Positions 7,689-30,312 of a DNA stretch of 64,000 bases are shown one piece after another. Position numbers and translations under genes: made by a program. The DNA is from an uncultured bacterium. GTDB lineage: Bacteria > Omnitrophota > Omnitrophia > Omnitrophales > JACQLI01. The stretch is taken from positions 27,860 to 91,859 of the forward strand of contig CAYJTB010000001.1 in NCBI GenBank assembly GCA_964372875.1. The letters run 5' to 3'. Positions within the stretch are counted from its first letter, which is position 1; every line of letters begins with the position of its first letter. Under the pieces are notes generated by a model. That model was not told the DNA's origin. It saw nothing but the letters and a program-made list of their open reading frames with translations, and ran no database searches.

Positions 7689-7721
7689 ATAGCCCCTTTC
7701 CCCGGTCCCTCATCCTTCACC

Positions 7722-7727
7722 TGTTAT
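7722..7727 (+). promoter_or_regulatory. TATAAT -10-like hexamer upstream of mfd-like gene
   Basis: ttcacctgTTATAATct 20 nt before the GTG start; no good -35. Confidence 0.25.
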
Positions 7728-7746
7728 AATCTTCTAGAGATTTACC

Positions 7747-9654
7747 GTGGGCGGGCTTGAAAGGCTTCATGTTGGCCAGACTGTTGAACGAAGCCATTTG
7801 GAGACCCTCCTCCAGAAACTTCGTTACAAGAGGAGAGATTTTGTGTCCGGACCCGGTGAATATGCCGACCGCGGCGCCACTCTCGATATCTATCCTGTAA
7901 GTTACCGCGCTCCCATTCGTCTTAATTTCGATCTCGATACCATCGTTTCGATCCACGATTTTTCTCCCGCCGAAGGCAAGAGCCTCACCCGCTTTGACGA
8001 GGTCCTTCTCGTCCCGCTCTCGGAGCCTTTTGAATCTTCAGCCACCCGGATGCGGCAGCGTTTTCAGGCCTTCGAAGCCCTTACGGAGACGGCCGATCTC
8101 GAGCCGGGCGATTATGTGGTCCATCTCCAGTACGGCATCGCGCGCTACCTCGGAACGAAGAAGATGACGCTGAAGAAAAAGGCGGTCCGCTGCGTTGCCT
8201 TGGAGTTTGCAGATCGTGAAATCCTTTATTTGGATTCCAAAGAACCCTTGGAGCGCTACATCGGGGTTGAAGGAAAAAAACCCCGGCTTACCCGGCTTCA
8301 CTCGAAAGAATGGGAAAAAGCCAAGGCCAAGACACGGCTTGCCGTAGAAAGCGTTGCGCGAGACCTCCTTTCTCTTCAAGCGAAGCGCGAACTCTCCCAC
8401 GGCCAAACCTTTCCTAAAGACAGTGAATGGCAGAGTAAATTCGAAGAAGAGTTTCCTTTTGAAGAAACGGAAGATCAAATCAAGGCCACGGAAGACATCA
8501 AAAAAGATATGGAAGGTGCCAAGCCGATGGATCGTCTTCTTTGCGGCGATGTGGGCTTCGGAAAAACAGAAGTTGCCATGCGCGCCGCCTTCAAGGCCGT
8601 GATGGCCGGAAAACAAGTGGCCTTTTTAGTCCCCACCACGGTGCTTGCCGAGCAGCACGCCCTTGTTTTTAAAGAACGCACCCGGACTTTTCCCATCAAA
8701 ATCGAAGTCCTCTCCCGTTTTCGTTCCCGAAAAAACCAAACCGAGATATTAAAGCAACTCTGGGAAGGAAAAGTGGACGTGATCATCGGCACGCACCGGC
8801 TTTTTTCCTCCGATGTCCAGTTTAAGGACCTAGGTCTTGTCATCATTGATGAAGAACAGCGTTTCGGCGTGGCCCACAAGGAAAAATTAAAAAAGTTAAG
8901 AGAATTGGTGGATGTGCTGACCTTAACGGCAACGCCCATTCCACGCACGCTTTATCTTTCGCTGATGGGGGCGAGGGACATGTCGGTCATTAATACCCCG
9001 CCTCGCACACGACTTCCCATTGAAACTTATGTGATGGAATATGATGATCACAAAATTGCAGAGGCCATCCGCCGGGAGCTGGCGCGGGGCGGCCAAGTGT
9101 ATTTTGTCCACAACCGCGTGGCTTCTCTCCCCAGAGTTTGCGAGCATTTAAAAACCATTCTGCCGAGTGTGCGGTTTGCCGGCGCGCACGGCCAGATGTT
9201 TGCCCACGAACTGGAAAAGGTCATGAAAAATTTTCTCGAGAAAAAAATTGATTGTCTCGTCACCACCAACATTATTGAATCAGGTCTTGATATCCCTAAT
9301 GCCAATACGATCATTGTGAACCGCGCTGACCGGTTTGGTCTTGCGGATCTTTATCAGCTGCGCGGACGGGTAGGGCGGTTTGTGGGTAAGCGGCAGGCTT
9401 ACGCGTATTTTATTATTCCTCGCCATTGGGTCATGACCTTGGATGCCCAAAAAAGATTAGAGGCAATTGAGCGGTTCACGGAACTTGGAGCAGGATTCAA
9501 AATCGCCATGAAAGACCTCGAAATTCGCGGGGCAGGTAATGTTCTGGGCCATGAACAAAGCGGATTTATCTATGCGGTGGGTTTTGACCTGTATTGCCGC
9601 ATGCTCCGCAAGGCCGTGGATGAACTCAAGAACTCTCCCAAAAAGAAGCCGTGA
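7747..9654 (+). CDS. mfd: Mfd-like transcription-repair coupling factor core (lacks N-terminal UvrA-interaction domains and C-terminal D7)
   Basis: [14 protein letters not shown] (D1b-like), RNAP-interaction motif [18 protein letters not shown]2 helicase motifs [42 protein letters not shown]-like hairpin; GTG start, in-frame TAG 12 nt upstream so no longer N-terminus possible; ends 10 aa after the last helicase block. Confidence 0.8.
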
Positions 9655-10671: not shown

Positions 10672-11721
10672 GTGTTGCAAAAACCCATCATTGCGATCAC
10701 ACAGGGCGATCCCGGCGGGGTCGGTCCCGAAATCATCGCAAAGTCCCTCCAGCATCCTGAAAATTTTTCCGGCGTTTTTCTTCTTCTGATCGGCACCGCC
10801 GTGGTTTTTGAATTTGTCCAAGAAGAATTTGGCATCAAACTCCCTTTAAATCCCATCCCGACCTTGGATCCCCAATTTTTAAGAGACGATTCGCTTAATT
10901 TTTTGGATGTGACGGAAGAAGCGGGATGGCTTTTAAAAAAACACTCCCTGCCCCAGCCCGATGAAAATAATCTTTTTGATATCGGCAAAGTGTCTGCGAC
11001 TAACGCAGCCATGGCCTTGGCGGCCTTGAAGGCCGGGGCGTACCAGGCAGCCACGGGTCTTGTCAATGGACTTGTCACAGCACCTGTGAATAAAGAAGCC
11101 ATTCGACTTCTCGAGCCCAAATTTGTGGGGCATACGGAATATCTGGCCAGAATCGCCCGCACCAAAGAATTCGCCATGATGTTTCTCAAAGCTAAGGACG
11201 AGAGTTCGGGACCTTTGCGGGTGACACTCGTGACCATTCATGTCCCTTTAAAAAAAGTTTCCCGGCTCGTCACTGAAGATGCCATTTTAGAAAAAATCCG
11301 TCTCACACATCAGTTCTTAAAAACCCGCCTTAAAATCGCCAAGCCCCGAATCGGTGTTTCGGCTTTAAATCCGCACGGTCATGAGACGGGGGACGAAGAG
11401 GAAAGAGTGATTTTTCCGGCCATCAAAAAGGCCCAAGAGGAAAATATCTTGGCAAAGGGTCCGGTTTCAGGCGACCGGATTTTTTACGATGCCTCCAAGG
11501 GAATTTATGATGCGGTTATCTCGATGTATCACGACCAGGCGCTGGCGCCCTTTAAATTGGCGGCCTTTGAAACAGGTGTGAATTTAACGCTGGGGCTTCC
11601 CTATGTGCGCACATCGCCTGACCACGGAACCGCCTTTGATATTGCCTACCAGGGAAATGCCAATCCCAAATCCATACAAGCGGCTCTCGCGTTGGCAATT
11701 CAGCTTGTGAAGGTTCGCTGA
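10672..11721 (+). CDS. pdxA: 4-hydroxythreonine-4-phosphate dehydrogenase PdxA
   Basis: ITQGDPGGVGPEI, HGHETGDEE, metal-binding His residues, SPDHGTAFDIA. Confidence 0.9.
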   Translation: MLQKPIIAITQGDPGGVGPEIIAKSLQHPENFSGVFLLLIGTAVVFEFVQEEFGIKLPLNPIPTLDPQFLRDDSLNFLDVTEEAGWLLKKHSLPQPDENNLFDIGKVSATNAAMALAALKAGAYQAATGLVNGLVTAPVNKEAIRLLEPKFVGHTEYLARIARTKEFAMMFLKAKDESSGPLRVTLVTIHVPLKKVSRLVTEDAILEKIRLTHQFLKTRLKIAKPRIGVSALNPHGHETGDEEERVIFPAIKKAQEENILAKGPVSGDRIFYDASKGIYDAVISMYHDQALAPFKLAAFETGVNLTLGLPYVRTSPDHGTAFDIAYQGNANPKSIQAALALAIQLVKVR

Positions 11722-11744: not shown

Positions 11745-11877
11745 GTCATCCTGAATGAAGCGACACGTCTTCGAGTGCGGCAAAGCCGCGAAGCCGTGAG
11801 GATCTGCCTTGAGATTCTTTCCGCCAAAGGCGGGCCCGCCTCTGGCGGGCGGCCATAGCCCTCGGCCTCAGAATGAC
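11745..11877. repeat. palindromic MITE-like element with imperfect terminal inverted repeats (GTCATCCTGA ... TCAGAATGAC), GC-rich internal hairpins
   Basis: Convergent intergenic region between pdxA(+) and GT2(-); TIRs related to the GTCATTGCGAGG family found in-frame in tsaD/larB/rsmA. Confidence 0.55.
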
Positions 11878-11884
11878 AGTTTGG

Positions 11885-13594
11885 TTAGTAAACCCGGGCG
11901 GCCCTTCTCTTTTTATTCTTTCCGCCTTTAGGCGCGACAAAAAATTCCATGTATTGGCCGAGGGCCAGGCGTGTCTGTGCATCGAGCGCAGGGACAGCAC
12001 CGAAGATGGTGGCAATGGCCGGGACAAGAAGCCATTGAAGAGCCAAGAAAATCTTTTCATAGAAGGGGACTTTCTTGGGGCGTTTGGGCAGGAGATAAAA
12101 ACTCAGGATAATCGAAATCACAAGGCTTGCGATAGCCATGTTGCAGATGACACCTGCCACCCGAGGCGCATTAAAGTGGGCGACGGTCAAATTGAATTCG
12201 TAATTGGGAACAAGGGCAGGCGCCCAGCTTAAGATCATCATGATGGGGGTCCAGGTGGCCCACGAGACATTCATCTCAAGAAGACGCAGCGCTCGTTTAA
12301 ATTTAAGCCAAAACGGGATCTCCTGATGCTTCAGCATGCCCCTCACGAGAATAGGAAAATTTTCGACCCCCCATGCCCAGCGTCTTTTTTGCCGGTAAAT
12401 GGATTGGCAGGTTTTCCACAAGTTCTCACCGATTGCCACATCCATCGACAACGTAACATAAAGAGGCTCCACCCGGTAATCGCCGTTAAAAATAAGAAAG
12501 GCCTTCCAGAAAATGGCAGAATCATCGGAAACCAGATCCACCGGCCAGTAACCTACTTCGACAAGCGCCTGAAAGCTCATGCTATGGCTTGAAAAGGTAA
12601 CCAAGTGGTCCGGGTCAGTGACTTCGATCAGCTGAAAATAAGAAGACCCTGTTTCTAACACTTGGGCAAAAGAGGGGGCCTCCCAGAGATTGTTATGATA
12701 AACGGGGATGGGCTGAAAACTGGTCCGGGTCCGTTTGGGATGAATCAAATAATTATAGGTGAGGCAAGAAAAATATTCGGTACTTACGACCGTATCCGAG
12801 TCAAAACAGGAAACCACAATGTGATCGAGCGGAGTCCCGCGCGCCTCGAAAAATTTCTTGGCCCAACGCGCGGCATACGTGGCGTTGGCGCCTTTGACCG
12901 CCGCCTCTCCTGGGAGCCCATCGGGATGAATACAGTTTTCAAAGTGGAGGAAATCTTTCGCGTATTCTTCTTTTAAGACCTCCGCAATACGGACCGCCTC
13001 TTTTCCTCCGCGTTCCTCAATCGCAAGGACCACCACGATGTGGTTTTTGGGATAATTCGTTTGTCTTAAAGCCTCAAGCGTGGGTTCTAAGACACTCAGA
13101 CCTTCCCAGAGATAGGGAATAATCACGAGATGATAGATATCTTTTGGATTGGGAAAATGGATTTTATCATGTTGGAGGCGTTTCAAAGTTGCGAGATGCC
13201 TTTTTTCTGAAAAATGAATTTTCCAACCAAGCTTGGGATCGCGAATCCTTTTTTGTGTCCTCGTTATGGCGCTCTCTAAATGGAGAAAATCTTGCAGCCG
13301 GTCAAACCATTGAGCGGTTCGTTCAATTTCAAGAAGCACATAAGAGAGCACCAAAAAAATGGTGAAATAAACCAGCCGGAAAAGCCAGTAGAGATCGAAA
13401 AGAATAACCGTCACAACCCCGGCGACCGGGGCCAAGATACATACGAGTGTAAAGGAAATAAGAAGACTCCAGCTAAGCACGGCGGGGAGGATTTCCAGGC
13501 CACGCTCCAACCGCCCTTCGTTTTTACCCAGATTGTGGCGGGAATATTCAAATTTCATGGAGAATCCTTGGAGGCCGCGGAGGCGGAAACCCAA
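11885..13594 (-). CDS. membrane-bound processive family-2 glycosyltransferase (cellulose/glucan synthase-like)
   Basis: N-terminal TM helices, D...DxD (CFDSDT)...SDD and Q(R/Q)xRW motif (YRQKRRWAWG), C-terminal TM bundle. Confidence 0.8.
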   Translation of the reverse strand: MGFRLRGLQGFSMKFEYSRHNLGKNEGRLERGLEILPAVLSWSLLISFTLVCILAPVAGVVTVILFDLYWLFRLVYFTIFLVLSYVLLEIERTAQWFDRLQDFLHLESAITRTQKRIRDPKLGWKIHFSEKRHLATLKRLQHDKIHFPNPKDIYHLVIIPYLWEGLSVLEPTLEALRQTNYPKNHIVVVLAIEERGGKEAVRIAEVLKEEYAKDFLHFENCIHPDGLPGEAAVKGANATYAARWAKKFFEARGTPLDHIVVSCFDSDTVVSTEYFSCLTYNYLIHPKRTRTSFQPIPVYHNNLWEAPSFAQVLETGSSYFQLIEVTDPDHLVTFSSHSMSFQALVEVGYWPVDLVSDDSAIFWKAFLIFNGDYRVEPLYVTLSMDVAIGENLWKTCQSIYRQKRRWAWGVENFPILVRGMLKHQEIPFWLKFKRALRLLEMNVSWATWTPIMMILSWAPALVPNYEFNLTVAHFNAPRVAGVICNMAIASLVISIILSFYLLPKRPKKVPFYEKIFLALQWLLVPAIATIFGAVPALDAQTRLALGQYMEFFVAPKGGKNKKRRAARVY

Positions 13595-15036
13595 TCATCT
13601 ACCAACCGGGGAAGAATATTTGCCGGCTCGAAAAGCTGGATCCGTGACAATCGGCGGGTAAGGGGATCCGCAAAATAAACAAACCCCCGTCTTTCATCCA
13701 AAGCAATTTGAGGGACTCTTTTTGAAATTTGGAAGAGAGGAACCGCTTGGCCATTGCCTTCAAAATCCAACACCTTTACCCAGCCGCCTTCTACAAATAA
13801 AAGATAATTGTCATTGTAAAACCAAGTGAGATTAGAAATTTTTTGCTCTCCCTGATAAATTTTTCGGGGGGAAACGCCGGTTTGGAAAAATTCTTTTTCC
13901 GGTTCACGCTCAAAATCGACCAGCCAAAGTTCAGAATCTTTCCGGTAGACAGCCCGCCTGTTGAAAACGGCCGTGACCACTTCCTCCACTCTCTTGTCCA
14001 GGTAATAGGGAAGCCGGTTGGAAAAAAGCTTGCCTTGATCCGACAAGAAAAGAGCAAACGCCTCATGAAGCGGAGTGAAGATAAAAGGCCGGGAGAGAAA
14101 ATAGAAGGAATAGCGTTCCCCCTCGTCAGGACCGAAAATAAGGTGCGCCTTGGCGGCCGTGCCCAATAACGTTTTCCGGATTTCCCCTTTTTCAGTTAAT
14201 TCGAATAAACGTCTTCGGGCATCCATCACAAAAAGTTTGCGTCTGTCCGTGGTATAGCCCCGAATCCCGCCCTGCACATCAAAGAGAGGAAACCGTTCTT
14301 CAAAATCCATTTTTTTGAGGGTATCGCCTTGAAGATAAAAGAGTGCATTTTTTTGAGAGGGGCCCCAACGAAACTTATCGAAGGGTTCCTGGAGACTTCC
14401 AGCAAGCGGAGTCAGTTCCATGGGACTCAGGAATTTCACAAGAAAAGGACGAATGCCTTCTTTTTGTTTCATGAAGGCCACGGCCTTTTCGCCTAAGGGA
14501 TGCATCAGGACTTCTCCCACTGGGAAATCATATTCGCCTGAAAAATTGGGGAAAATAGGCTCGAGTTGATTTCGCTCAGGTTCAAAAAGATAGAGCCCGG
14601 AGACGTGATCGCCTTGAAGGACTACAAGTTTTCTTGTCTGTGCAGCGTGCCAGATTTTTGTGATGGGAAAATCCGTGAGCTTCTCCGAATCAAACTGAGT
14701 GGGGAAGAGCAAAATATTTTCAAAAGAAAGGACCTTATCGGCTTTGACCTCCACTTGTTTTTGCCAAGGATGCATTCCCGGCAGGCTCAAGTGAAGGTTA
14801 TAAAAACCGGATTTAAGATTACGAATGACGACAGGGGTGGTGTCTTTCAAGACCCGGTGATTGAGCTCAACCTGGGCTTGGGAGGGGTGTGAATTAAGGC
14901 TGATCAGGCCGGTGAGGAGAAGCTTGGAATGGCTGGGGCTGAAAATATAGCCCAAGGCATAGAGCACGGTCAAAGGTGCTATCACAAGGTAGGCTACGGT
15001 AAAAACCAAGAAGATTGCTTTACGTAAAATTCCCAT
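13555..15036 (-). CDS. hypothetical N-terminally membrane-anchored protein, upstream partner of the GT2 synthase (40-nt overlap)
   Basis: 493 aa; single N-terminal TM (FLVFTVAYLVIAPLTVLYALGYIF) then large extracytoplasmic domain; operon with GT2; no recognisable family by eye. Confidence 0.5.
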   Translation of the reverse strand: MGILRKAIFLVFTVAYLVIAPLTVLYALGYIFSPSHSKLLLTGLISLNSHPSQAQVELNHRVLKDTTPVVIRNLKSGFYNLHLSLPGMHPWQKQVEVKADKVLSFENILLFPTQFDSEKLTDFPITKIWHAAQTRKLVVLQGDHVSGLYLFEPERNQLEPIFPNFSGEYDFPVGEVLMHPLGEKAVAFMKQKEGIRPFLVKFLSPMELTPLAGSLQEPFDKFRWGPSQKNALFYLQGDTLKKMDFEERFPLFDVQGGIRGYTTDRRKLFVMDARRRLFELTEKGEIRKTLLGTAAKAHLIFGPDEGERYSFYFLSRPFIFTPLHEAFALFLSDQGKLFSNRLPYYLDKRVEEVVTAVFNRRAVYRKDSELWLVDFEREPEKEFFQTGVSPRKIYQGEQKISNLTWFYNDNYLLFVEGGWVKVLDFEGNGQAVPLFQISKRVPQIALDERRGFVYFADPLTRRLSRIQLFEPANILPRLVDDWVSASAASKDSP

Positions 15037-15087
15037 GTTGTTCTAACTCCCTATTGGGCCTCATTTTATGCTACTTGGGGGTCATTT

Positions 15088-15116
15088 GACAAGTTACGTT
15101 CCAGAGGGTATCTTTT
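15088..15116 (+). promoter_or_regulatory. sigma70-like promoter (TTGACA-17-TATCTT) in divergent region upstream of giant gene
   Basis: ttgacaagttacgttccagagggtatctt. Confidence 0.4.
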
Positions 15117-15211
15117 GTTACAGTGAAAGAAACTCTTAAGTGAATGTTCCTAAGGGGTTAGCACCTCGACTCTATTGATTTTTTTGGGGTATGCTCGGTG
15201 CTATGGTGAGC

Positions 15212-15240
15212 GAGATTGAAATTGGCGGTGCCAATTTCAA
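15212..15240. promoter_or_regulatory. perfect 12-bp-stem palindrome (gattgaaattgg cggtg ccaatttcaatc) in the leader of the giant gene
   Basis: Seen directly; 76 nt upstream of the ATG at 15316; possible operator or RNA hairpin. Confidence 0.5.
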
Positions 15241-15315
15241 TCGTGTCGAACCATTAGCAACAACTCCAGGGAATTTTTTTACTCTGTAATTCAGACCTTT
15301 AGGAAAGATTAAACT

Positions 15316-18300
15316 ATGACCCTACGCGCGAAAAATTTTTATCTACGCACTGTCGCAGCTTTCACCGCAATCATTTTTTGCTGGAATAGCCTTGCTTGGC
15401 CGCTTCCCGAGGTTGCGGTTCCCCAGGCCGGCAAAACTTTCGATCTCATTCCAAAAGAACTCGGAACCGTCGATGAATACGAACTGCCGGACGCTTCACA
15501 TTCCGCACCCTTTGTCATACATATTCAAGATCTCCACGCAGCACCCGAAGCTCAAGAAAAAATCCTGGACATTCTTAAATTTTTACATTCAAAAAAGAAA
15601 CTTCTCGTAGCGGTCGAAGGAGCCGCCGGAACGCTTCATCCTGAGTATTTAGATTTCTTTCCGCAATACCCGCGTGTCACAAACGCACTCGTTCAAGATT
15701 TGGTAAGTGAGAGCATGCTTACAGGGCCGGCGTTATTCGCATGGGAGAGGTATGAGAGTAAGCCGTCATTGCACCCGTCATTGCGAGGACGTAAGTCCGA
15801 AGCAATCTCAAATCCTAGATTGCTTCGTCGGGCCTTTGGCCCTCCTCACAATGACAATAGCGTCCAATTCATAGGCGTCGAGACGCCGCGTCTTTATCGC
15901 GAAAACCTTAAAGCCTATCGCGATTTTTTCCAGGATGAAGAAAAAAATCAGCAGGATTTGAAATCTTTCCAAACCTCATTGGAATCGGCCCAAACGAAGA
16001 TTTTCAATCCTGATTTGAGGAAATTTGTCCAAGAAGTCCAGAGACGTAAAGATGGAAAGTTTCAATCGGGAAAGGCCTCGCCCGATCTTGCGGCTTACAT
16101 TCGCTTTCTCGCGGATTCAAGCCGAGATCATTTGGGAGTTGATCTAAGAGATAAATTCGAACAGATCCGTTTTCCCAATCTAACCCGCATTCTTTTCTTG
16201 ATGGAATTCGAATCAAAAATCACTGCTCACCAGCGCCGGGTTCTGCATTCTGAAATTGAATCCAAAAAACTTTTTGATGAAATCACACTTCTCGAAACAA
16301 GACTGCGGCAAATACTGGTTAAAAAGCCGGAAGAAACAAAACTTCTTGAGATCCTTGATGATTTCAAGTTGCTTGAGAAGTTATTCCATTTGGAACTGAC
16401 TCGCGAGGAATATTACCAAGTCGTCAACAGGGTTTTGGAAATCAATCCGTCGAATTTACATCAGCGTTTGGCAACCATTGCTGAGATTGCTTCGACCTCG
16501 TCTGAAATGTTGTCTCGCAATGACGCCGATTACGAAACTGCTCTGCGTTTTTACCGCTTAGCCATTCGCAGAGACAAAGCCCTTCTTGAAAATGCCTTGC
16601 GAGAGGCAGCTAAAACGGAGAACTCGTCTCAAGAAAAACCACTCATCGTTCTTGTTACCGGCGGTTTTCACACTTCAGGGGTGAGCGAGCTTCTCAAAGA
16701 AAAGAAAATTCCTTACGCCGTCGTCACGCCTGCCTTAGCAAAAACCAAAGCCAATCAAGACCAATATCACAAACTGATGTCCGGCAAAATGTTCGCCAAA
16801 GAAGCCTCAAGCGCTTCGCCCAAGAATAACAATCTGGTGTGGGCGCAGATTCTTACAGCAAGAGATCGGTACCCGAGCCTCAATTCCGACGAGGATCAGC
16901 AAAAAATATTTTCCCACGCGACTGAAAAGTCCGGCGAGTATTTTCGAAAATTCTATCCCCAAATCTCCGAACCCAAACTGCAAGAACTTTTATCTCGCCC
17001 CGCCGGATTCTTTTCGCAAATCTCCCGTTCCGAATTGCAAAGTAGGAGCCAGATTACGAATTCGGCCATCGATGGCCGAATTGGCGGGAAAAGGGTACTG
17101 CCTTCACGTTTTCCGCGCTCGGAAGTGCGGGCGGTAGAACAGCGATTAGAAGTCAGTGGTCAGAAGACAGAAGGCTGGAGTTCAAAGATAGGAAAAATTA
17201 TCAGGAATGGCAGCGATTTTGGACTATCGAGGGTTTTCCAGCGTAGTCAGGCGAAGAATTATCGAATTCCAAGCCGCTTAGAAAAATCTCGAGGTGAAAG
17301 AATAGAAATCTCTTTAAAGGTTTTCATCGATAGCAGATCGTGGTCTCCTGTGACAATGATCGTTGCTTTAGCTGAAAGAGCGCATTCCAGCACGGCATCA
17401 TCGTCCGGGTCACGGCAGGCCTTTACCTTTGTTTTAGGTTTGACTATCAAAGCTTTCATATGGATCAATGAAATCATTTCTTCAAGCATTTCAGGCGTGA
17501 TCCATTTCTTGAGTTTAGGTTTTTCCAGTGAGCGAAGAAAGTCTTCCAGTAAGGCCGGAGATAAAGCCGCAATGAACTTGTCTTCTTCCAGGGATTCCAG
17601 AATCGAACGGCAAACGCCCGGAAAGGCGAGTCCGCTCACCAGCACATTCACATCAAGAACGACCCGACGCATACCGTTCCTGCCGGGCTTGCTTGACCAG
17701 ATTCAGAAGCTCTTTTCGGCTGAGAGGGTGTTTCTTTCGGCTTTTATCAACTTTGCGGGTCAGAGAACGGAAGCGTTCTCCCCAGGTCTTATGTTCAAGA
17801 CGACGGATCAGGGTAATGCGGTCACGGGATTTCAATTGATTGATCATGCGCTCAATTTGTTGAATGTCTACTTCCACGGCAATCTTAGGCATAGGATTTT
17901 ATCCTCCTCTTCGAATCAGTATAATTTATCGGCCTTGGCGGATCAAAATCAAAACATTTCTTCCGTTAAGCCTTCTAAGCAAAGTTCGACAGAACCGAGC
18001 CGAAGGGCCGCTTCCGGCCCCGAGAGCCGTCAGTCTCCGATCCTAAGCGTCGATAGACCCGGAGGGGCCCGTGGGGAGGTGCGGGCAAAAGAACAGAGGT
18101 CAGAAGTCAGAGAGCAGAGGATAGAGGTCATAAGTCAGAGATCAGAAGGAAAAATTACTTCGAGTGGCGGCGATTTTGGTAGCGTTCGATCAGGTACATC
18201 ACGCCCCAGGCAAGAAATATCAAAACCAAAACAAGAGACACGGTTATCACGTTTTATTTACCCCTTTTCCGAATCTCTTGGGCAAGCCATCCAAGAAATA

Positions 18301-27300: not shown

Positions 27301-28719
27301 ATAAAAAATCATTTTCTGACCGCGCTTCATCATTTCATTTGGGAACACAGCGACTTTGAAGATGCGAAGAATTTAGCCAGAGAACTCGGTAACTTGAGCC
27401 TAATCAGTTCTTTGTTGGGTGAGCCCCTCAGTAAAAGACAGGCCGCTTTTTATAAGCGCGCACTTTTGAGCTCTGACCGCACGCAGCAGAAGATCGCGCT
27501 TGGCTTCTTCGAGACTTTCCCTGATCTTGAAAAAATGGACTGGAAAGAGGAAGTCGTTGGTAAACTTAAAGAAATCGTAATGGATGAATCCGAAGATTCT
27601 GAATTTAGAAAATATGCCTTTGAAGCGTTGACAAACAATATTCTTCTTATAGAGCCAGCCTTTTTGGCGCCTTATTTTAAAGAGCCGCGCAGCCAACGGT
27701 TTCGAATCATTTCTTCGGATAAAAAAGGCGCTCGGATTTTATTTTCGGTTCTTCAGAAGAAATTTGGGTCGCCTTTAAAGGACCCGCCCCTTTTTAAAAA
27801 AAGTTCCGAGTCCATCATTTTATCAGGAGAATTTACGACAGGTCTGAGAAATGCTGCCATGTTGATCCGATTTGTAAGGCAGGCCTACGGCCGGGAGATA
27901 TCCTTTGATGAGTCCCGCGGCTTGCTTAAAGAGATGAAAAAGAAACAAGACAGATCCCGGCGTTCCGAAATACGGAGTGAAAGCTTGGATTCGACGTGGG
28001 AGTTGAGGGAGGATGCGAACAAAGGAAAGCTTGCGGAACTTGGAAAACAATTTGCGCCGATGATTGAGAGTCTTTGGAAACGCTCCGAGGTCAGGCACAG
28101 GCTTGCGACGGACGGATTTTTGAATCTTTCAAAGCTGATTGAAATTCCCAAAGCCGAAGCGGCTGAACCTGCGATTGTAGCTGCGCTTTTGATCCGTGCA
28201 GAACAATCCCAAACCGGAACGCCGGCTTTGGACAAACATTTGCAAGTGTGGCAGTCGCGCATGGGAATCAGTTCGGTTGCTAAAGAAAATGAAGTCGTAA
28301 TCCTCTTAGAAGGTGCGGCGTTTAAACTCGGACTCTTGGCTGCGATCGACGGAATTAGCCCGGCAGCTCCGAAGATCGGCGTTGTGGCGCCCAAGGCTTA
28401 CCATTCTTTAGTGGAAGAAGTCAGAAGCGGTCTTAGAACCGGGCAAGAACTGATCGAAGGGGAGAAGCTTCCCGAAATTTTAAATCAAATTGCTCAGATG
28501 AAACAGAAGCCAAGCCGCTTAACGATTTGGGCTTCGAAGGAAGACTCGTTCTTAACAGCAGCGTTCATCAAACGTTTTCTTAAAGATCCAAACCTGAATG
28601 TAGAAGTAAAGACCGTGACGCAGCGCGATCTTGACCGCGCCAACGCGTCTCACCCCGGCTTTGCGGAACGTATCAAGAACTTCCTCGCCGCCGTCAAATC
28701 CCTCAGCATTTCCGCTTAA
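15316..28719 (+). CDS. giant secreted multi-domain protein (4467 aa): signal peptide, helical N-region, 7-blade WD40-like beta-propeller, three ~70-aa WN..HP repeats, Pol-beta-like nucleotidyltransferase-like motif, HEAT/ARM-like helical C-terminus; contains recurrent RSEVR motifs and in-frame GC-rich hairpin repeats
   Basis: Single uninterrupted 13.4-kb ORF; N-terminus MTLRAKNFYLRTVAAFTAIIFCWNSLAWP; WD40-like blades ~18.55-19.5 kb; GSLGVLGSAVRDKSDLNLMVV at ~25.49 kb; RBS aggaaag upstream. Confidence 0.8.
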   Translation: MTLRAKNFYLRTVAAFTAIIFCWNSLAWPLPEVAVPQAGKTFDLIPKELGTVDEYELPDASHSAPFVIHIQDLHAAPEAQEKILDILKFLHSKKKLLVAVEGAAGTLHPEYLDFFPQYPRVTNALVQDLVSESMLTGPALFAWERYESKPSLHPSLRGRKSEAISNPRLLRRAFGPPHNDNSVQFIGVETPRLYRENLKAYRDFFQDEEKNQQDLKSFQTSLESAQTKIFNPDLRKFVQEVQRRKDGKFQSGKASPDLAAYIRFLADSSRDHLGVDLRDKFEQIRFPNLTRILFLMEFESKITAHQRRVLHSEIESKKLFDEITLLETRLRQILVKKPEETKLLEILDDFKLLEKLFHLELTREEYYQVVNRVLEINPSNLHQRLATIAEIASTSSEMLSRNDADYETALRFYRLAIRRDKALLENALREAAKTENSSQEKPLIVLVTGGFHTSGVSELLKEKKIPYAVVTPALAKTKANQDQYHKLMSGKMFAKEASSASPKNNNLVWAQILTARDRYPSLNSDEDQQKIFSHATEKSGEYFRKFYPQISEPKLQELLSRPAGFFSQISRSELQSRSQITNSAIDGRIGGKRVLPSRFPRSEVRAVEQRLEVSGQKTEGWSSKIGKIIRNGSDFGLSRVFQRSQAKNYRIPSRLEKSRGERIEISLKVFIDSRSWSPVTMIVALAERAHSSTASSSGSRQAFTFVLGLTIKAFIWINEIISSSISGVIHFLSLGFSSERRKSSSKAGDKAAMNLSSSRDSRIERQTPGKASPLTSTFTSRTTRRIPFLPGLLDQIQKLFSAERVFLSAFINFAGQRTEAFSPGLMFKTTDQGNAVTGFQLIDHALNLLNVYFHGNLRHRILSSSSNQYNLSALADQNQNISSVKPSKQSSTEPSRRAASGPESRQSPILSVDRPGGARGEVRAKEQRSEVREQRIEVISQRSEGKITSSGGDFGSVRSGTSRPRQEISKPKQETRLSRFIYPFSESLGQAIQEIRIMMATIIERTALAFNEVFQMFSLTTRAANTRLTALMIPSANKFRLLDGKRVFISMLQAPQPNTGLILSQILFLEYEISRRSEVREYISDWTVSTLETKQPVLAAAFSTDGKILAAGARNNVHLTNGDLRKWSVEFRAHRNEIAKLISFQRGNRNFFATASRIGSISLWNSNGGLIRRLEQLNPEDFQPVLGLSVSKNGDWLAATDMDVMKIYDLTGMSSPKTIPITDQSRNHFVQFSPDGTSIASTYYGEIRIEDIKTGKLRANLHHEASLKKSMDTSALAFSKGDDVAAASTDGKIRIWRWKGERQPQVLDFLSPAREASHLIFSPNGKRLAASTADQIEIWKLNGKVWRHEETIYPHLDAVTEILFSPDAKRFMAAGIWHGSGRVRIWSKETPARAEVRTDGIPTTWFRIFNRLDNLNREVWKQKDLDIIDLTNQLEKKLISLFGSQLLYGIWTWNTSVREVRFGLRSGPLSFELTANPHQEIPEREIKRGYTVTMNAMLTSAAESQHAKKWGDSEPEERGETLLEIPIAEIDRSQPVIYFGSFYFDTDKEKKETIIKQEILFLPGEERNYQIYIWHNNALEKTTLEKEGGRTYAVWRTPEAEPSLSFQYVALHDAQGKDLGEISRLILKAGNSETYRNNLQFLYGPIWRDETSSFSHGSRTSVKPSVFEDLISAAPGKRIAALLGLAIEYQYVPEGQVFSRMLLTELEKLEGLPYGRIAALREIAEMSPEEAHERFKDPYDQPSAIPAVMTLVASLAPRLLERMKNWDQEFYEELKGVLQKPDLKTLFEEGEVKFYEADHLWAASDNRSFFPGVVAFSRSKDRQIIVPIYFGNEPKDEDGKVWFKILDATSLGIENSNAATYQVYDHMLGEFYKTLHSGEKLYREGWSIGIPVVPGKLDRAGFIQKGRHVQFLEMRRTQSLTTATRIGLPENLVKTQGILTDLLREMSKLEIYFFISKTGATDRRMVPVDNVYEFFSSYAGKKGEHWNEIVSEPLQLTVSSPGFKRQTLRHALRMMQEALQLTYSFPGTLKGNDPHLSFYHDKLIEETQLLKTSDQTGKWAHVEFEIASSHFEMPDHWDQPAENSLRQRIQALREALEIPFVLMLKAPSGAKDPYHIEPVGNLHQRLPYFVLKDDFLKNPHDPRFPYFSKGAQLSFGLEAPMDSARLEQVRNILVASLEGRMSAATLKRAIEVTMHQWQREDSFFSESRSEARRVPRTLAVHPVRLAPGTPLYPDRSGPGVAVQSHWNSARSEVRTEKSERLTRSNAGELLKPRRYLKNKIYGIGRITAVEGKFGGKDPQGSVEVAFLNKHGFEETKEFSTWSLFQLPEQNPEEAFFSVTRQEIEDFKNQKRQGQAAYKEEIDKKRIAQREGRQWMEAQSPTFSLYDSPFSARAGRPLAADYRKLMQGIQDRAQGEYHLGSASIVERKILFEMLGTRLIPKTNQSETTLRINLGRRKKEFAEKLKTILDETGGLSARAVSEAEEKIMSPKDKSRALSSEWLKFRDPVTGKFATEKDIKRWIQNAIPIVERILEYEVKLLKLEKQIQIHPRPLARSEVRAAESSPTKKVAFFNLRTADDSSIVLPQRMSYLPVEQRLPDYSAWRIRVGRESGNLHAFLRDVLGPRWHWNVKGETKAYFLYKSLPKKFKQFIGKRKPPTGFDMEALGLLVVNRSDIFYIPMEETVNESVVTVLDKNDRDAINEFISHHAMIQTVPQNIRIFPPVRYESVKFGLGEDPVSSPKPGSIEVVYHPRLMVNDLGKADKEIIFETSFDLTQLRPRKKITAELEGRFYQELKSRLRNTWQIRIGNRTVEMPRAKDLPAKVQDVEEILLPGNNRKTASLHFNDAVSFYLDGILMRSNVPVPKDIHAWIFWKTRIRFNDQEISVETTEGNNVLTYRTDETGEHLRVNGEPTDNSVLQNMIRQMGSAFSILAFQMARDPEQTDYLRESGKETIDDEFDQWLGRSEVREEGQPAQNGNGHAIQKKQRGRGFRTKEEALQALAERQAKGLSSDPKSLQRHLAEGGNPTLLTFIYRWNQKHPEEPIEMKLLPTRTHKYESKGEIIEALEKRRLEKGESANYRMQLRLHIEEGGDRTLYQAVLRWNHDHPEDLINLPLDPHVAHGQLGKYQTKQDGLNTLSERKKQGLGNSTSDLRQTKSDGGDWPLLVFIRHWNKKHPKDRIALENADQNFNRLSPVAVWHSQTQDFKTTDQKRTEWWRALQEEADHEAGKRLVESFIPSVNEIAQRLSGGRDSHYEADLIQNGNMIVLETIYPERKEDQWNPSRGVSMTEFVETRLKKEMRHRTLQEIRSSGRFSIDEPYRFSKGREKEWQVPSYDAQPQEVRINNLADERDKQSGLPVILFEEKHQIAREIGKWLIKKGFLKQVKQEGIQNLAVSMIGSLGVLGSAVRDKSDLNLMVVTDANESQAEALAEKLAQWIGGRYHEPQDSEPIRISVGKEGDYEQAIADGNGFISLLQKHKVGTDPIKGIASVEVIGIPDEDNSFSEDSLTRQKTRAAFHLAFQDPRLAEQAINGILVLENAKGAAERLAQKLPSDQENLFGYYEKFLAKQAANLRKLQESSIDSKARAEVHPNPTDSGTPQSSPDQARAEVRSSLPEQRAEKKLETRKLEIGAGISGLSGRVETSNGRVFSGSDRLPIKSTRSPQKSEWQGQPSFSLPPLRSLPQKSSPNKSISRVLLERQAAISGRVLGKALLPELLLIGPKSHAETTLPASPSGPLSGIYFSQNKIYSNINSELSDFSRSDGSTSSPSVLSKAEGRVERAEVHPNPTDSGTPPHSRPTGVSTEVSLAAPPGAPPSSPERARAEVRASVEEIIRKQMLSGDLKAFEKNFESYDREKAFELLNSISKIAKEISERIRKGEEELMVAANNGQKMQEIIDAAKILENFPNDKQIHGVHLSAIINLQEIFNLTPKALPRYRNLLEAIVKHASKKEQPHQAAAEIIESFEGEQHADSQQDQFQRNEALEFLTLDLDEKVFKETVIKNHFLTALHHFIWEHSDFEDAKNLARELGNLSLISSLLGEPLSKRQAAFYKRALLSSDRTQQKIALGFFETFPDLEKMDWKEEVVGKLKEIVMDESEDSEFRKYAFEALTNNILLIEPAFLAPYFKEPRSQRFRIISSDKKGARILFSVLQKKFGSPLKDPPLFKKSSESIILSGEFTTGLRNAAMLIRFVRQAYGREISFDESRGLLKEMKKKQDRSRRSEIRSESLDSTWELREDANKGKLAELGKQFAPMIESLWKRSEVRHRLATDGFLNLSKLIEIPKAEAAEPAIVAALLIRAEQSQTGTPALDKHLQVWQSRMGISSVAKENEVVILLEGAAFKLGLLAAIDGISPAAPKIGVVAPKAYHSLVEEVRSGLRTGQELIEGEKLPEILNQIAQMKQKPSRLTIWASKEDSFLTAAFIKRFLKDPNLNVEVKTVTQRDLDRANASHPGFAERIKNFLAAVKSLSISA
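17259..17672 (-). CDS. PIN-domain toxin (TIGR00305-like), encoded antisense inside the giant ORF
   Basis: MRRVVLDVNVLVSGL...CRDPDDDAVLECALSAKATIIVTGDHDLL: conserved acidic residues of the PIN fold. Confidence 0.75.
   Translation of the reverse strand: MRRVVLDVNVLVSGLAFPGVCRSILESLEEDKFIAALSPALLEDFLRSLEKPKLKKWITPEMLEEMISLIHMKALIVKPKTKVKACRDPDDDAVLECALSAKATIIVTGDHDLLSMKTFKEISILSPRDFSKRLGIR
17653..17892 (-). CDS. putative antitoxin partner of the nested PIN toxin
   Basis: 79-aa basic/helical protein overlapping the PIN start by 20 nt (classic TA arrangement); no recognisable fold by eye. Confidence 0.5.
   Translation of the reverse strand: MPKIAVEVDIQQIERMINQLKSRDRITLIRRLEHKTWGERFRSLTRKVDKSRKKHPLSRKELLNLVKQARQERYASGRS
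18258..18461 (-). CDS. small (67 aa) 2-TM membrane protein, antisense inside giant ORF; paralog of 26324..26533
   Basis: MKTLFPSKRRNLF...VSLVLAALVV...SLKAKAVLSIIVAIMILISW; AT-rich promoter-like region immediately upstream on the minus strand (TTGACT at 18505-18510). Confidence 0.5.
   Translation of the reverse strand: MKTLFPSKRRNLFADGIMRAVSLVLAALVVSENIWKTSLKAKAVLSIIVAIMILISWMACPRDSEKG
21972..22113 (+). repeat. in-frame GC-rich hairpin cluster inside giant ORF (paralogous to 26062-26130 and 26630-26790)
   Basis: gtgcacccg-loop-cgggtactcc flanks shared with the 26-kb copies; stems cccggtgc/gcaccggg, acccggacc/ggtccgggt, cattggaac...gttccaatg; ends in RSEVR codons. Confidence 0.5.
26062..26130 (+). 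repeat. in-frame structured repeat unit (40-nt perfect repeat + second hairpin) inside giant ORF
   Basis: gccgaggtgcacccgaatccgaccgattcgggtactcctc identical at 26062-26101 and 26644-26683; hairpin cccgaatc/gattcggg; second hairpin cctcgcc-cgatca-ggcgagg. Confidence 0.6.
26324..26533 (-). CDS. small (69 aa) 2-TM membrane protein, antisense inside giant ORF; paralog of 18258..18461
   Basis: GTG start; MKSIFLTTARRDWL...VILVLLAGVLGG...SLKWRLVVLGGLVICFYLGLIF; shares MK(S/T)(I/L)F, K.SLK...VL...V.I pattern with the other copy; AT-rich region with TTGATA upstream on minus strand. Confidence 0.5.
   Translation of the reverse strand: MKSIFLTTARRDWLAKLFQHVILVLLAGVLGGELFLKLSLKWRLVVLGGLVICFYLGLIFAASSSKEED
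26630..26790 (+). repeat. in-frame structured repeat unit, second copy, with four hairpins
   Basis: Same 40-nt repeat; additional stems actcacgcc/ggcgtgagt, cctggcggc/gccgccagg, cctcgcc-tgaacg-ggcgagg (loop differs from copy 1 while stem is kept). Confidence 0.6.
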
Positions 28720-29397: not shown

Positions 29398-30312
29398 TTG
29401 AGTTCCACGCAAATCGCCCTTCTTAAAAAATACGGTCTTGAAGTCCGTGGATTTCGCGGCCAGCATCTTTTGGTCGATCCCAACATTCAACGAAAGATCG
29501 TGGAGTTAGTCGCTCCCAAACCAGGTGAGTGGATCGTTGAGATCGGGCCGGGCCTGGGTGCGCTCACGACTGAGATTTTGGCGGACGGCGCGTCGGTCCT
29601 TGCGATTGAAAAAGACAAACGCTTCTGCGAGATCCTGGAAGGGGAGTTCGGCATCGATTACAAAGGAAAACTCCTGATCGAAAATGCGGATGTTCTCAAG
29701 ACGGATTTAAAAAAATTACTCAAATCGTCGTTACGAGCCCCAAAGAGGCGAAGCAACCTAAGCACGAAGACTGCTTCGGCGCCGCCTCGCAATGACCGGA
29801 TCAAAGTCATCTCGAACCTTCCTTACTATATAACTTCACCTGTGCTTTTCTGGCTGATCTCCAATCGTGCATCTGTGGAAAAAGCGGTTTTGATGATGCA
29901 GGCTGAAGTCGCGGACCGTTTGCTCGCCCAGCCGGGAGATAAAGATTATAGCCGGCTTACCTTGGGAGTCCGGTATTACGCCGAAGTCCACCGTGCTTTT
30001 GAAGTTTCCCGCAATTGTTTTACTCCGAGGCCCGATGTCGATTCAACGGTCGTGACGATCGATTTTCACCCGCCGTCCGCATTCCCAAAAGGAATCGACG
30101 AGGCATTTCTTTTCCATCTCATTCAAGTAGCCTTCGGTGCCCGGCGAAAAACCCTACTCAATCGTCTTACGCAAGATTCAAAAGTAGGTCGCCCTCGTTC
30201 CCAGCTCTTAGAAATTTTTCACAAGCTCGGCATCCCCGAAATGGCCCGCGCTGAAGAGCTCCTCCTCAAAGACTTCATCTCATTGACCGAATTTCTTCAA
30301 CCTAAACATTAA
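29398..30312 (+). CDS. rsmA: 16S rRNA (adenine1518/1519-N6)-dimethyltransferase RsmA/KsgA, carrying an in-frame palindromic-element insertion
   Basis: TTG start; GQHLLVDPNI, VVEIGPGLGALT, NLPY motif; ~23-aa extra loop (...RRSNLSTKTASAPPRND) coincides with element 29727-29796. Confidence 0.88.
   Translation: MSSTQIALLKKYGLEVRGFRGQHLLVDPNIQRKIVELVAPKPGEWIVEIGPGLGALTTEILADGASVLAIEKDKRFCEILEGEFGIDYKGKLLIENADVLKTDLKKLLKSSLRAPKRRSNLSTKTASAPPRNDRIKVISNLPYYITSPVLFWLISNRASVEKAVLMMQAEVADRLLAQPGDKDYSRLTLGVRYYAEVHRAFEVSRNCFTPRPDVDSTVVTIDFHPPSAFPKGIDEAFLFHLIQVAFGARRKTLLNRLTQDSKVGRPRSQLLEIFHKLGIPEMARAEELLLKDFISLTEFLQPKH
29727..29796. repeat. palindromic element (degenerate 5-prime TIR gtcgttacgag ... cctcgcaatgac) inside rsmA
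   Basis: 3-prime end identical to the tsaD and larB copies (CCTCGCAATGAC); internal gaagcaa motif shared. Confidence 0.55.

Follow-up and report, generated by a model that had tools for sequence, protein, structure and literature searches.

Direct repeats around an antisense vapBC operon in a giant Omnitrophota reading frame as putative duplicated inter-module junctions

The locus and its closest described counterparts

The analysed stretch (hereafter the window) comprises 64,000 nucleotides (nt) of DNA from an uncultured bacterium of the Omnitrophota (GenBank assembly GCA_964372875.1, contig CAYJTB010000001.1, positions 27,860 to 91,859). It contains a giant open reading frame (ORF) in which a minus-strand vapBC toxin–antitoxin (TA) operon lies between two diverged direct repeats; the repeats, the TA module and their surroundings are all enclosed in this single ORF (Table 1). 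The closest described systems are the giant genes of Omnitrophota (West-Roberts et al. 2023, bioRxiv 10.1101/2023.11.21.568195; Nielsen & Lui 2026, bioRxiv 10.64898/2026.06.07.730766), which share with the present ORF the phylum, a very long multi-module membrane-anchored product and a suspected cutting into several products. However, the ORF described here (4.5 kaa) is shorter than the published giant classes of at least 10–30 kaa, and its N-terminal module is different. The main one of the two papers calls the cleavage points unknown, and term searches of both retrieved no mention of a junction motif, of antisense or nested genes, or of stop-codon avoidance.

Sedentary chromosomal integrons resemble the locus in that TA operons are located inside long repeat-bounded arrays. 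The TA operons of the Vibrio superintegrons possess their own promoters, reside in repeat-bounded cassette arrays, often in inverted orientation, and are thought to stabilise these arrays. Unlike in integrons, no attC sites were seen here and no IntI among the ten flanking genes scanned or in the giant ORF, and the array consists of a single reading frame with a boundary conserved as a peptide and with a stop-free frame antisense to the TA genes.

Foreign DNA may also enter an ORF without breaking it, as in Rickettsia palindromic elements (RPEs) and inteins. The former are non-coding palindromes of ~100–150 bp found as selfish in-frame inserts in Rickettsia genes; the latter carry a Hint splicing domain, and the insert peptide is removed after translation with religation of the host protein. 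The present ORF also contains an RPE-like palindrome, but differs from both systems in that whole antisense operons of 0.5–1.4 kb are read through, and their removal, if any, would proceed via host junction sites. No Hint or intein family was found in Pfam or NCBIfam scans of the whole ORF.

Polyvalent proteins of phages and conjugative elements, reportedly described by Iyer et al. in 2017, are said to combine many unrelated domains per ORF, to be released proteolytically and to include recognisable peptidase domains. The stringing of unrelated domains in one ORF is common to these proteins and the locus; we know of no conserved pentapeptide punctuation or antisense inserts described for polyvalent proteins or polyproteins. 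Antiparallel overlapping genes such as laoB of E. coli O157:H7 (PMC5810103) likewise place two ORFs on opposite strands of the same DNA; in known cases of this kind, short novel ORFs are overprinted on an older gene and both products are constrained. Here, in contrast, the embedded genes are constrained and belong to old families such as PIN, while the host frame is constrained only to stay open. The operon itself has the features of type II VapBC systems (PIN_3 / TIGR00305), namely the antitoxin–toxin order, a 20-nt overlap, the PIN acidic residues, a promoter-like site and a Shine-Dalgarno sequence. What sets this lineage apart is that each of the five operons examined has an antisense frame free of stops and junction motifs at its flanks. 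A literature search for the peptide motif RSEVR returned irrelevant papers only, and one for nested antisense TA modules found no precedent. Thus, the architecture of junction-bracketed antisense cassettes in giant ORFs, which recurs in Omnitrophota, appears undescribed.

Repeats, junction motif and the nested operon

The two repeats are in direct orientation and 76–82% identical. They align in two ungapped blocks, one of 51 nt (17121–17171 versus 18075–18125, 76%) and one of 33 nt (17190–17222 versus 18147–18179, 82%), with start-to-start distances of 954 and 957 nt, both of which are divisible by three. The longest exact match between the copies, as read from the alignment, is 11 nt. A previous inspection of the bare DNA (hereafter the sequence-only reading) had noted diverged repeats bracketing a nested TA module and named low-complexity sequence as the way in which the match could prove spurious. 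The gapped local alignment of the repeats scores 68, against 16.4 +/- 2.5 (maximum 32) for 2000 shuffles and a maximum of 30 among 1606 other window tiles on both strands. Identity is therefore far above background, and low complexity does not explain the match despite an internal 21-nt (heptad) tandem in the right copy (18090–18117 / 18118–18145, 86%). The reported peptide similarity (SEVRAVEQRLEV...GSDFG versus GEVRAKEQRSEV...GGDFG) is likewise present in plus-strand frame 0. Apart from one base at 11834, window positions 11831–21760 are reproduced exactly in a separate assembly from Logan (ERR3478686; L034), so that the arrangement is not an assembly artefact.

Each repeat begins with a junction motif, continues with a short linker of heptads and closes with DNA antisense to the 3' end of a gene for a small membrane peptide. 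The right repeat ends with the antisense of the last 8 codons and the stop of the 31-aa peptide gene, and its right half (..GGCGGCGATTTTGG) thereby corresponds to the peptide C-terminus ..YQNRRHSK-stop; the left copy carries the same sequence as a degenerate remnant. Each repeat thus includes the final ~25 nt of the neighbouring small-peptide gene. Where the linker halves of the two copies differ, the changes are mostly synonymous in the plus frame (Arg CGA versus AGG; GAA/GAG; GCG/GCA). The sequence-only reading took the repeats for a signature of duplication-mediated insertion or excision; rather than an anonymous insertion scar, they are copies of the inter-module junction of the host ORF, kept at the amino-acid level.

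The junction motif, R-[S/A/G]-E-[V/I]-[R/H], occurs 14 times in frame in the giant ORF and in no other frame or region of the window. Its codons vary at every position (CGC/CGT/CGA/AGG; TCG/TCA/TCC/TCT/GCC; GAA/GAG; GTG/GTC/GTT/GTA; CGG/CGA/AGG/AGA), and all six Arg codons are used at the junction motif; since this variation is synonymous, the amino acids are the conserved entity. Across 18 giant ORFs with a total of 48,965 aa, the form R-[S/A]-E-[V/L/M/I]-R was found 84 times, with 0.77 occurrences expected from composition. A WD40 propeller (aa 1087–1376) fills the module between the junctions at aa 1076–1080 and 1393–1397, and the motif delimits folded units. The 40 residues ahead of the first junction are predicted to be disordered. 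Location at domain boundaries and around non-coding spacers makes the motif a candidate processing site in a putative polyprotein. The possibility that it is a translated Shine-Dalgarno sequence or internal start was also considered, the GAGGTG within the motif being Shine-Dalgarno-like and 63% of the fourth codons being GTG, ATG or TTG; it was rejected as the principal explanation because synonymous variants that break the Shine-Dalgarno sequence are common and downstream start codons are not enriched.

The toxin of the nested operon scores well above the family cut-offs (TIGR00305, 84.9 bits versus 29.15; PF13470, 65.8 bits versus 27), and its acidic residues D7, D88, D91, D92, D110 and D112 are kept without exception when it is aligned with 9 homologs. 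VapC belongs to a tight homolog cluster (62–84% identity), all members of which are on contigs of less than 5.3 kb; matches beyond it reach at most 45% identity over near-full length. The family assignment of the antitoxin is weak (VapB15-like, 28.4 bits, below the curated cut-off of 80). The vapB-like gene is conserved beside vapC on four related contigs (L035, L039, L041 and L042), its substitutions are concentrated at third codon positions, and the promoter region of the operon is conserved among the window, L035 and L039. By these sequence criteria, the minus-strand genes represent a bona fide predicted type II TA operon, and the sequence-only reading was right that the repeats bracket a genuine antisense module of this kind, with a PIN toxin and an overlapping 79-aa antitoxin. 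Just outside vapC, the RSQAK site (17242–17256) aligns with ARAEVR, ARAEAR and SRSEVR in the cassettes of L039, L041 and L042, and on the other side the RRAAS site (18001–18015) aligns with LRSEVR- or RSEMR-coding DNA located 100–130 nt upstream of vapB in L039 and L035. These alignments indicate that the TA cassette carried its own junction motifs, tentatively so for the distal one, which have since decayed in the window, and that the intact motifs are the outer ones in the repeats.

A codon-usage model trained on the other window genes scores plus-strand frame 0 as coding throughout the ORF except at about 17000–18440 and 26100–26650, and in both intervals the frame stays open yet non-coding. 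The avoidance of stops was assessed by synonymous recoding of nested genes with window codon usage, for a set of 18 genes from 6 contigs (the window, L001, L003, L017, L027 and L032). All 18 genes have no stop in the giant frame, compared to 0.5 to 4.4 expected per gene, and the combined stop-free probability under recoding is about 1e-18.6; the corresponding value for the inter-repeat cassette is about 0.099 x 0.117 x 0.576 x 0.074 = 5e-4. In five homologous vapBC operons, the antisense frame codon-aligned with vapB contains 0 stops, while the other two frames contain 5–14. Substitutions in these five operons are distributed differently in the two overlapping frames: synonymous/non-synonymous counts are 271/282 in the nested frame and 66/487 in the giant frame for vapB, and 485/463 and 350/599, respectively, for vapC. 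For the second membrane module of the window, comparison with its close relative L024 gives 31/34 in the nested frame and 8/55 in the giant frame, with 27/18/46 substitutions at the three codon positions of the nested-gene frame, a third-heavy pattern. The latter comparison shows that selection acts on the minus-strand genes and that the giant-frame peptide is free of it. By these counts, the host frame is kept open but encodes a meaningless spacer, as would be expected if ribosomes have to pass through it.

The interpretation that we favour, with confidence only a little better than even, is that the repeats are duplicated inter-module junctions of a polyprotein-like Omnitrophota ORF, flanking an antisense vapBC operon adapted to such ORFs. 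The giant ORF would be translated straight through its antisense cassettes, for which reason stop codons would have been purged from the antisense frame. The junction motifs would be the sites at which the product is cut into modules, and the spacer peptide opposite the TA genes would be released and discarded. An insert would be tolerated only with an open antisense frame and an intact junction on each side, the latter being supplied by the ~105-nt duplication; the need for an intact motif on each side would explain why the junction duplication has been retained as a peptide and the cassette's own motifs have decayed. Ribosomal bypassing or RNA splicing of the insert was also considered and set aside, because neither would demand stop-codon avoidance. 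More speculatively, by analogy with the TA cassettes of chromosomal integrons, the operon may stabilise the array against deletion between the repeated junctions, and convergent transcription from the nested promoters may modulate how strongly downstream stretches of the giant gene are expressed.

If this model is true, the motif would be the first candidate processing or boundary motif for Omnitrophota giant proteins, and gene callers would be hiding a real layer of genes in giant ORFs (TA systems, the membrane pair and coiled-coil proteins). The locus would also be a clear natural case of selection keeping a frame open across complete antisense operons, promoters included. The role of the junctions as protease sites, the stabilisation of arrays by TA operons and the regulation of a giant gene by nested promoters would all become testable.

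Table 1. Features of the giant ORF and its nested genes (window coordinates)
Feature	Position	Strand	Description
Giant stop-free ORF	15316..28719	+	4467 aa, 13.4 kb; N-terminal membrane-anchored module 1, then junction-separated modules
Module 1	15316..17040	+	Conserved head of Omnitrophota giant ORFs; conserved IHIQDxH, EGA and GGFHT motifs
Left direct repeat	17116..17222	+	Intact RSEVR (17116-17130), linker heptads (AVEQRLEVSGQKTEG...), degenerate remnant of small-peptide gene 3' end (..GGCAGCGATTTTGG)
Decayed TA-cassette junction, R-S-Q-A-K	17242..17256	+	3 nt before vapC end
vapC, PIN-domain toxin	17259..17672	-	137 aa; TIGR00305 E 4.7e-24; PF13470 E 8e-18
vapB-like antitoxin	17653..17892	-	79 aa; 20-nt overlap with vapC; VapB15-like E 1.4e-6
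Shine-Dalgarno of TA operon	17901..17907	-	AGGAGGA; from sequence
Promoter-like site of TA operon	17918..17946	-	TTGATC-17-TATACT; consensus scan
Candidate decayed distal junction, ~R-R-A-A-S	18001..18015	+	Inside GGGGCCGGAAGCGGCCCC hairpin; tentative
Right direct repeat	18070..18179	+	RGEVR (18070-18084); second junction RSEVR (18097-18111) within three tandem heptads; then peptide-gene antisense
Small membrane peptide gene	18155..18250	-	31 aa, GTG start (ITVSLVLVLIFLAWGVMYLIERYQNRRHSK)
Two-helix membrane protein	18258..18461	-	67 aa; upstream partner of small peptide
Closing junction, RSEVR	18541..18555	+	Ends antisense island, opens WD40 module
Second repeat pair, left copy	26062..26135	+	RAEVH...RAEVR; two hairpins, z -3.4
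Second membrane module	26234..26533	-	69-aa protein (26324..26533); 29-aa peptide (26234..26323) with GGAGGA Shine-Dalgarno
Second repeat pair, right copy	26644..26780	+	Expanded to four hairpins, ends in RAEVR; z -7.9

Recurrence and exchange of cassettes in related loci

Scans of genome and metagenome contigs revealed 30 loci with module 1, of which 22 are genome loci; 14 of the latter are titled Omnitrophota or Omnitrophica, and 8 are unlabelled or assigned to other phyla. Most of these loci have module 1 at the head of an ORF of several kb in which R-[S/A]-E-[V/L/M/I]-R recurs. Module 1 and the motif layout are shared with the window by 17 related loci, and 13 of the 15 that are titled or name-matched are labelled Omnitrophota or Omnitrophica. 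The same label predominates among the contigs and metagenome-assembled genomes that contain the nested vapBC lineage or the membrane module.

The first antisense island of the window comprises, on the minus strand, the 67-aa membrane protein, the 31-aa peptide and vapBC. The 69-aa protein and 29-aa peptide of the second island are homologous to the first-island pair, and this second module is also bracketed by repeats, which have 94% and 90% identity between copies. At 26059–26136 and 26641–26781, the sequence forms clusters of two and four perfect GC-rich hairpins, respectively, translated in frame as RAEVHPNPTDSGTP...SSPxxARAEVR. Homologs of the small peptide could be aligned from the second module of the window, L001, L003, L017, L027 and L039. 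The membrane pair (62–79 aa and 29–34 aa) is antisense inside a giant ORF in L001, L003, L017, L027 and L039 and the short contigs L024 and L025 carry it as well; in every case the opposite frame is open. The 67-aa protein has no Pfam, NCBIfam or PHROGs match, and in NCBIfam and PHROGs neither the membrane pair nor the coiled-coil proteins could be assigned to a family, a YbgE hit (E 0.006) being judged not credible. Only two entries of the membrane-protein family were found among 5.8 billion clustered proteins, a rarity that is probably due to gene callers assigning the locus to the giant ORF.

The vapBC lineage occurs in other giant ORFs with 64–84% protein identity. In L039, L041 and L042, vapBC lies antisense in a host frame that has no stop over the first 2.1 kb or more of the contig; in L039 and L042 this frame is open across the whole contig. 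A junction motif lies ~20 nt past the vapC stop in these three contigs, and a second one about 100–130 nt upstream of vapB in L039 and L041. Nested cassettes are almost always bracketed by motifs. In L039, the membrane pair, a coiled-coil gene and vapBC each lie between motifs, and in L017 module 1 is followed by RAEVR, the peptide and membrane protein, RAEVR, a DUF5615 toxin with a DUF433 antitoxin, and RAEVR, the genes all being antisense; 16 nt are identical at four L017 junctions. This distribution suggests that the vapBC lineage is adapted to life inside giant ORFs. Coiled-coil proteins of 89–138 aa nested antisense were observed in L032 (18520..18861, minus strand), L017 (5312..5728, minus) and L039 (1523..1792, plus), and share an N-terminal segment of the ...T(I/V)TEV... 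or EFKVILEDI type.

A comparison of L026 and L027, which are close relatives of each other, points to gain, loss and exchange at junctions. L027, the module 1 of which is 47% identical to that of the window, has the membrane pair after module 1 and no TA genes; L026 has neither. In L026, ...ARARAEVR|GSGWKG directly follows module 1, and at the same place L027 has ~670 extra nt, in which the membrane pair, in antisense, is followed by RAEVR, a short module in sense orientation and RAEVR|GSGWKG. Identity in the block behind the junction is 86% (L026 11555–14649 versus L027 12224–15330), compared to only 66.5% for module 1; this block begins at one RAEVR and stops less than 30 nt from the following junction, which suggests module-wise exchange between the two genomes. 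That L027 lacks TA genes and that this vapBC lineage turns up in other settings as well both support a later acquisition of the TA operon. The insertion part of the sequence-only reading, which had proposed duplication-mediated insertion or excision, is thus supported, as the cassette is a secondary acquisition that is missing from L026 and L027 and has relatives in other giant ORFs.

A wider proposition, which we regard as tentative and rather doubtful, is that giant ORFs are protein-level cassette arrays, in which genes and operons are spliced in frame between R-x-E-V-R junctions, exchanged there and cleaved post-translationally, with a guild of stop-free antisense cassettes and with the repeats as equivalents of boundary sites. 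The resident antisense cassettes in such arrays would be the vapBC lineage, DUF433/DUF5615, the new membrane-protein pair and the coiled-coil protein.

Alternative explanations and minor observations

The main rival to duplicated peptide junctions, possible and in our judgement improbable, takes the 15-nt motif DNA with its flanks as a DNA-level recombination site. The ORF would then be an integron-like cassette array, the TA cassette would have the repeats as its two boundary sites, and the peptide motif would be a by-product. The bracketing of nested cassettes, the exchange between L026 and L027 that starts at one junction and stops close to the next, and the identical 16 nt in L017 would all follow, as would the constant spacing of motif DNA relative to vapC and to vapB in homologous cassettes, which holds even in the frame-broken L035. 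A site of this type gives no reason, however, for the purging of stops from the frames antisense to the cassettes. At sense-module junctions, moreover, the codons are free and the amino acids are kept (CGA TCC GAA GTA AGG versus CGC TCG GAA GTG CGG), which is a signature of selection on the peptide. No recombinase was found among the ten neighbouring genes scanned or in the giant ORF, and neither was an integrase, the rest of the 64-kb window not having been scanned for recombinases. Integron cassettes end in attC-type imperfect palindromes; the repeats around the TA genes have no significant secondary structure, and the motif sites have a weak hairpin tendency only. The two readings may be true together.

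Several observations weigh against the favoured model, and of these the codon biases, the weak hairpin tendency and the L035 case favour the recombination site. Among the 84 motifs from 18 loci, Ser is always encoded by TCN and never by AGY (0/50, with 31% expected), Val is GTG in 73% of cases versus 30% in the background, and the final Arg is CGG in 45%, an enrichment. In addition, folding is slightly stronger at motif sites than in controls matched for GC content (p 0.003). Such nucleotide-level bias and folding could reflect a role of the motif in DNA or RNA. In L035, L036 and L037, which derive from one organism, motif DNA flanks the TA genes but the three pieces are in different frames, and a continuous ORF is therefore not obligatory. 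The membrane pair of L027 has no recognisable motif on its left side. Finally, Pfam and NCBIfam scans of the giant ORF and structure searches of module 1 detected no peptidase domain; module 1 has no significant Protein Data Bank match, and a Pfam ChaN/Tiki match in one module 1 homolog only (E 0.0098) is a weak hint. As regards the frame-broken organism, vapBC on the reverse strand of L035 (2900–3720) has no stop in its antisense frame and is flanked on either side by DNA that codes for RSEMR; in L035, L036 and L037 a 147-aa gene is called from the Met of the downstream RSEMR. This layout hints at either a broken array or a motif that is usable as a start site.

The sequence-only reading amounted to a mobile TA element that duplicated its target and can still be excised by means of the repeats in a part of the population, and this we consider unlikely. 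The direct repeats are real, the TA genes are lacking at the related L026 and L027 and the vapBC lineage is found in several contexts, and a deletion between the repeats would be in frame, removing exactly 318 codons and restoring an L027-like arrangement. Nevertheless, a repeat of ~105 nt is far beyond the length of any transposon target duplication, and it holds functional host sequence, namely the junction motif together with the end of an adjacent gene. A transposon or insertion sequence would have near-identical target-site duplications of 2–14 bp next to terminal inverted repeats, and a transposase; it was rejected because the ~105-nt repeats are 76–82% identical and the unit encodes only vapBC, without a transposase; the inverted pair just inside the repeats (17221–17235 / 18045–18059, 15 nt, 80%) is at chance level among 12 such pairs. 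No evidence of excision was obtained: a TA-less variant of this exact locus was not found, and the only other assembly has the same structure. In view of the requirements of RecA, copies that are 18–24% diverged in their ungapped blocks and share at most 11 nt of exact identity are a poor substrate for homologous recombination, and excision via these repeats is unlikely. On the whole, the observation behind the sequence-only reading is confirmed and its interpretation is partly supported.

That the repeats are instead a shared minus-strand 3' untranslated region or terminator, with incidental similarity of the plus-strand peptides, is very unlikely. On the minus strand, each copy does lie directly downstream of an operon end, one behind the small-peptide gene and the other behind vapC. 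However, neither copy folds better on that strand than shuffled sequence (z -0.42 and +0.96), no hairpin with a T-run was detected in a scan of either repeat, and the differences between the copies keep the plus-frame amino acids, including a change from CGA to AGG. Chance similarity of purine-rich, low-complexity DNA in an accidentally open frame, suggested by the purine-rich composition and the 21-nt tandem, is already refuted by the score of 68 versus a null maximum of 32, by stop-free probabilities of about 5e-4 for the cassette and about 1e-19 for all nested genes, and by the recurrence of the arrangement in other genomes.

With respect to other parts of the ORF, the AlphaFold2 model of module 1 has a mean confidence score (pLDDT) of 68.8, with residues 560–601 disordered, and the N-terminal 600 aa have few database relatives. 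Within module 1, the palindrome at 15766–15858, which resembles RPEs and repetitive extragenic palindromes, is in frame, codes for SLHPSLRGRKSEAISNPRLLRRAFGPPHNDN and folds into a hairpin of -42 kcal/mol; none of the five module 1 homologs compared contains it, and P0002 has a different short insert, HPERSEGSP, at the same spot. The module encoded at 22990–24198 (403 aa) has no homolog at E <= 0.001 in an exhaustive HMMER search of 1.84 billion representative proteins. An Rfam scan of the window yielded tRNA-Gln only. The best sigma-70-like match of the region, TTGAAG-17-TATAAT (18319–18347, minus strand; 10/12), lies within the 67-aa gene, upstream of the small-peptide gene, and may be an internal promoter.

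In L001, a sense-strand TA-like pair (9087–9652; 90 aa and a 92-aa HTH_3 protein) is located between a 4552-aa gene and the module 1 gene, and the 4552-aa gene nests an antisense membrane pair at 7713–8016. In the window, the giant ORF is preceded by minus-strand genes for a glycosyltransferase (11885–13594) and a PEGA-domain protein (13555–15036), and all three are situated between pdxA (10672–11721) and ksgA/rsmA (29398–30312). The surA-pdxA-ksgA genes form a classical cluster in which pdxA and ksgA are adjacent. The ~17.6 kb that separate them here look like an insertion into a housekeeping operon (window 9658–30312).

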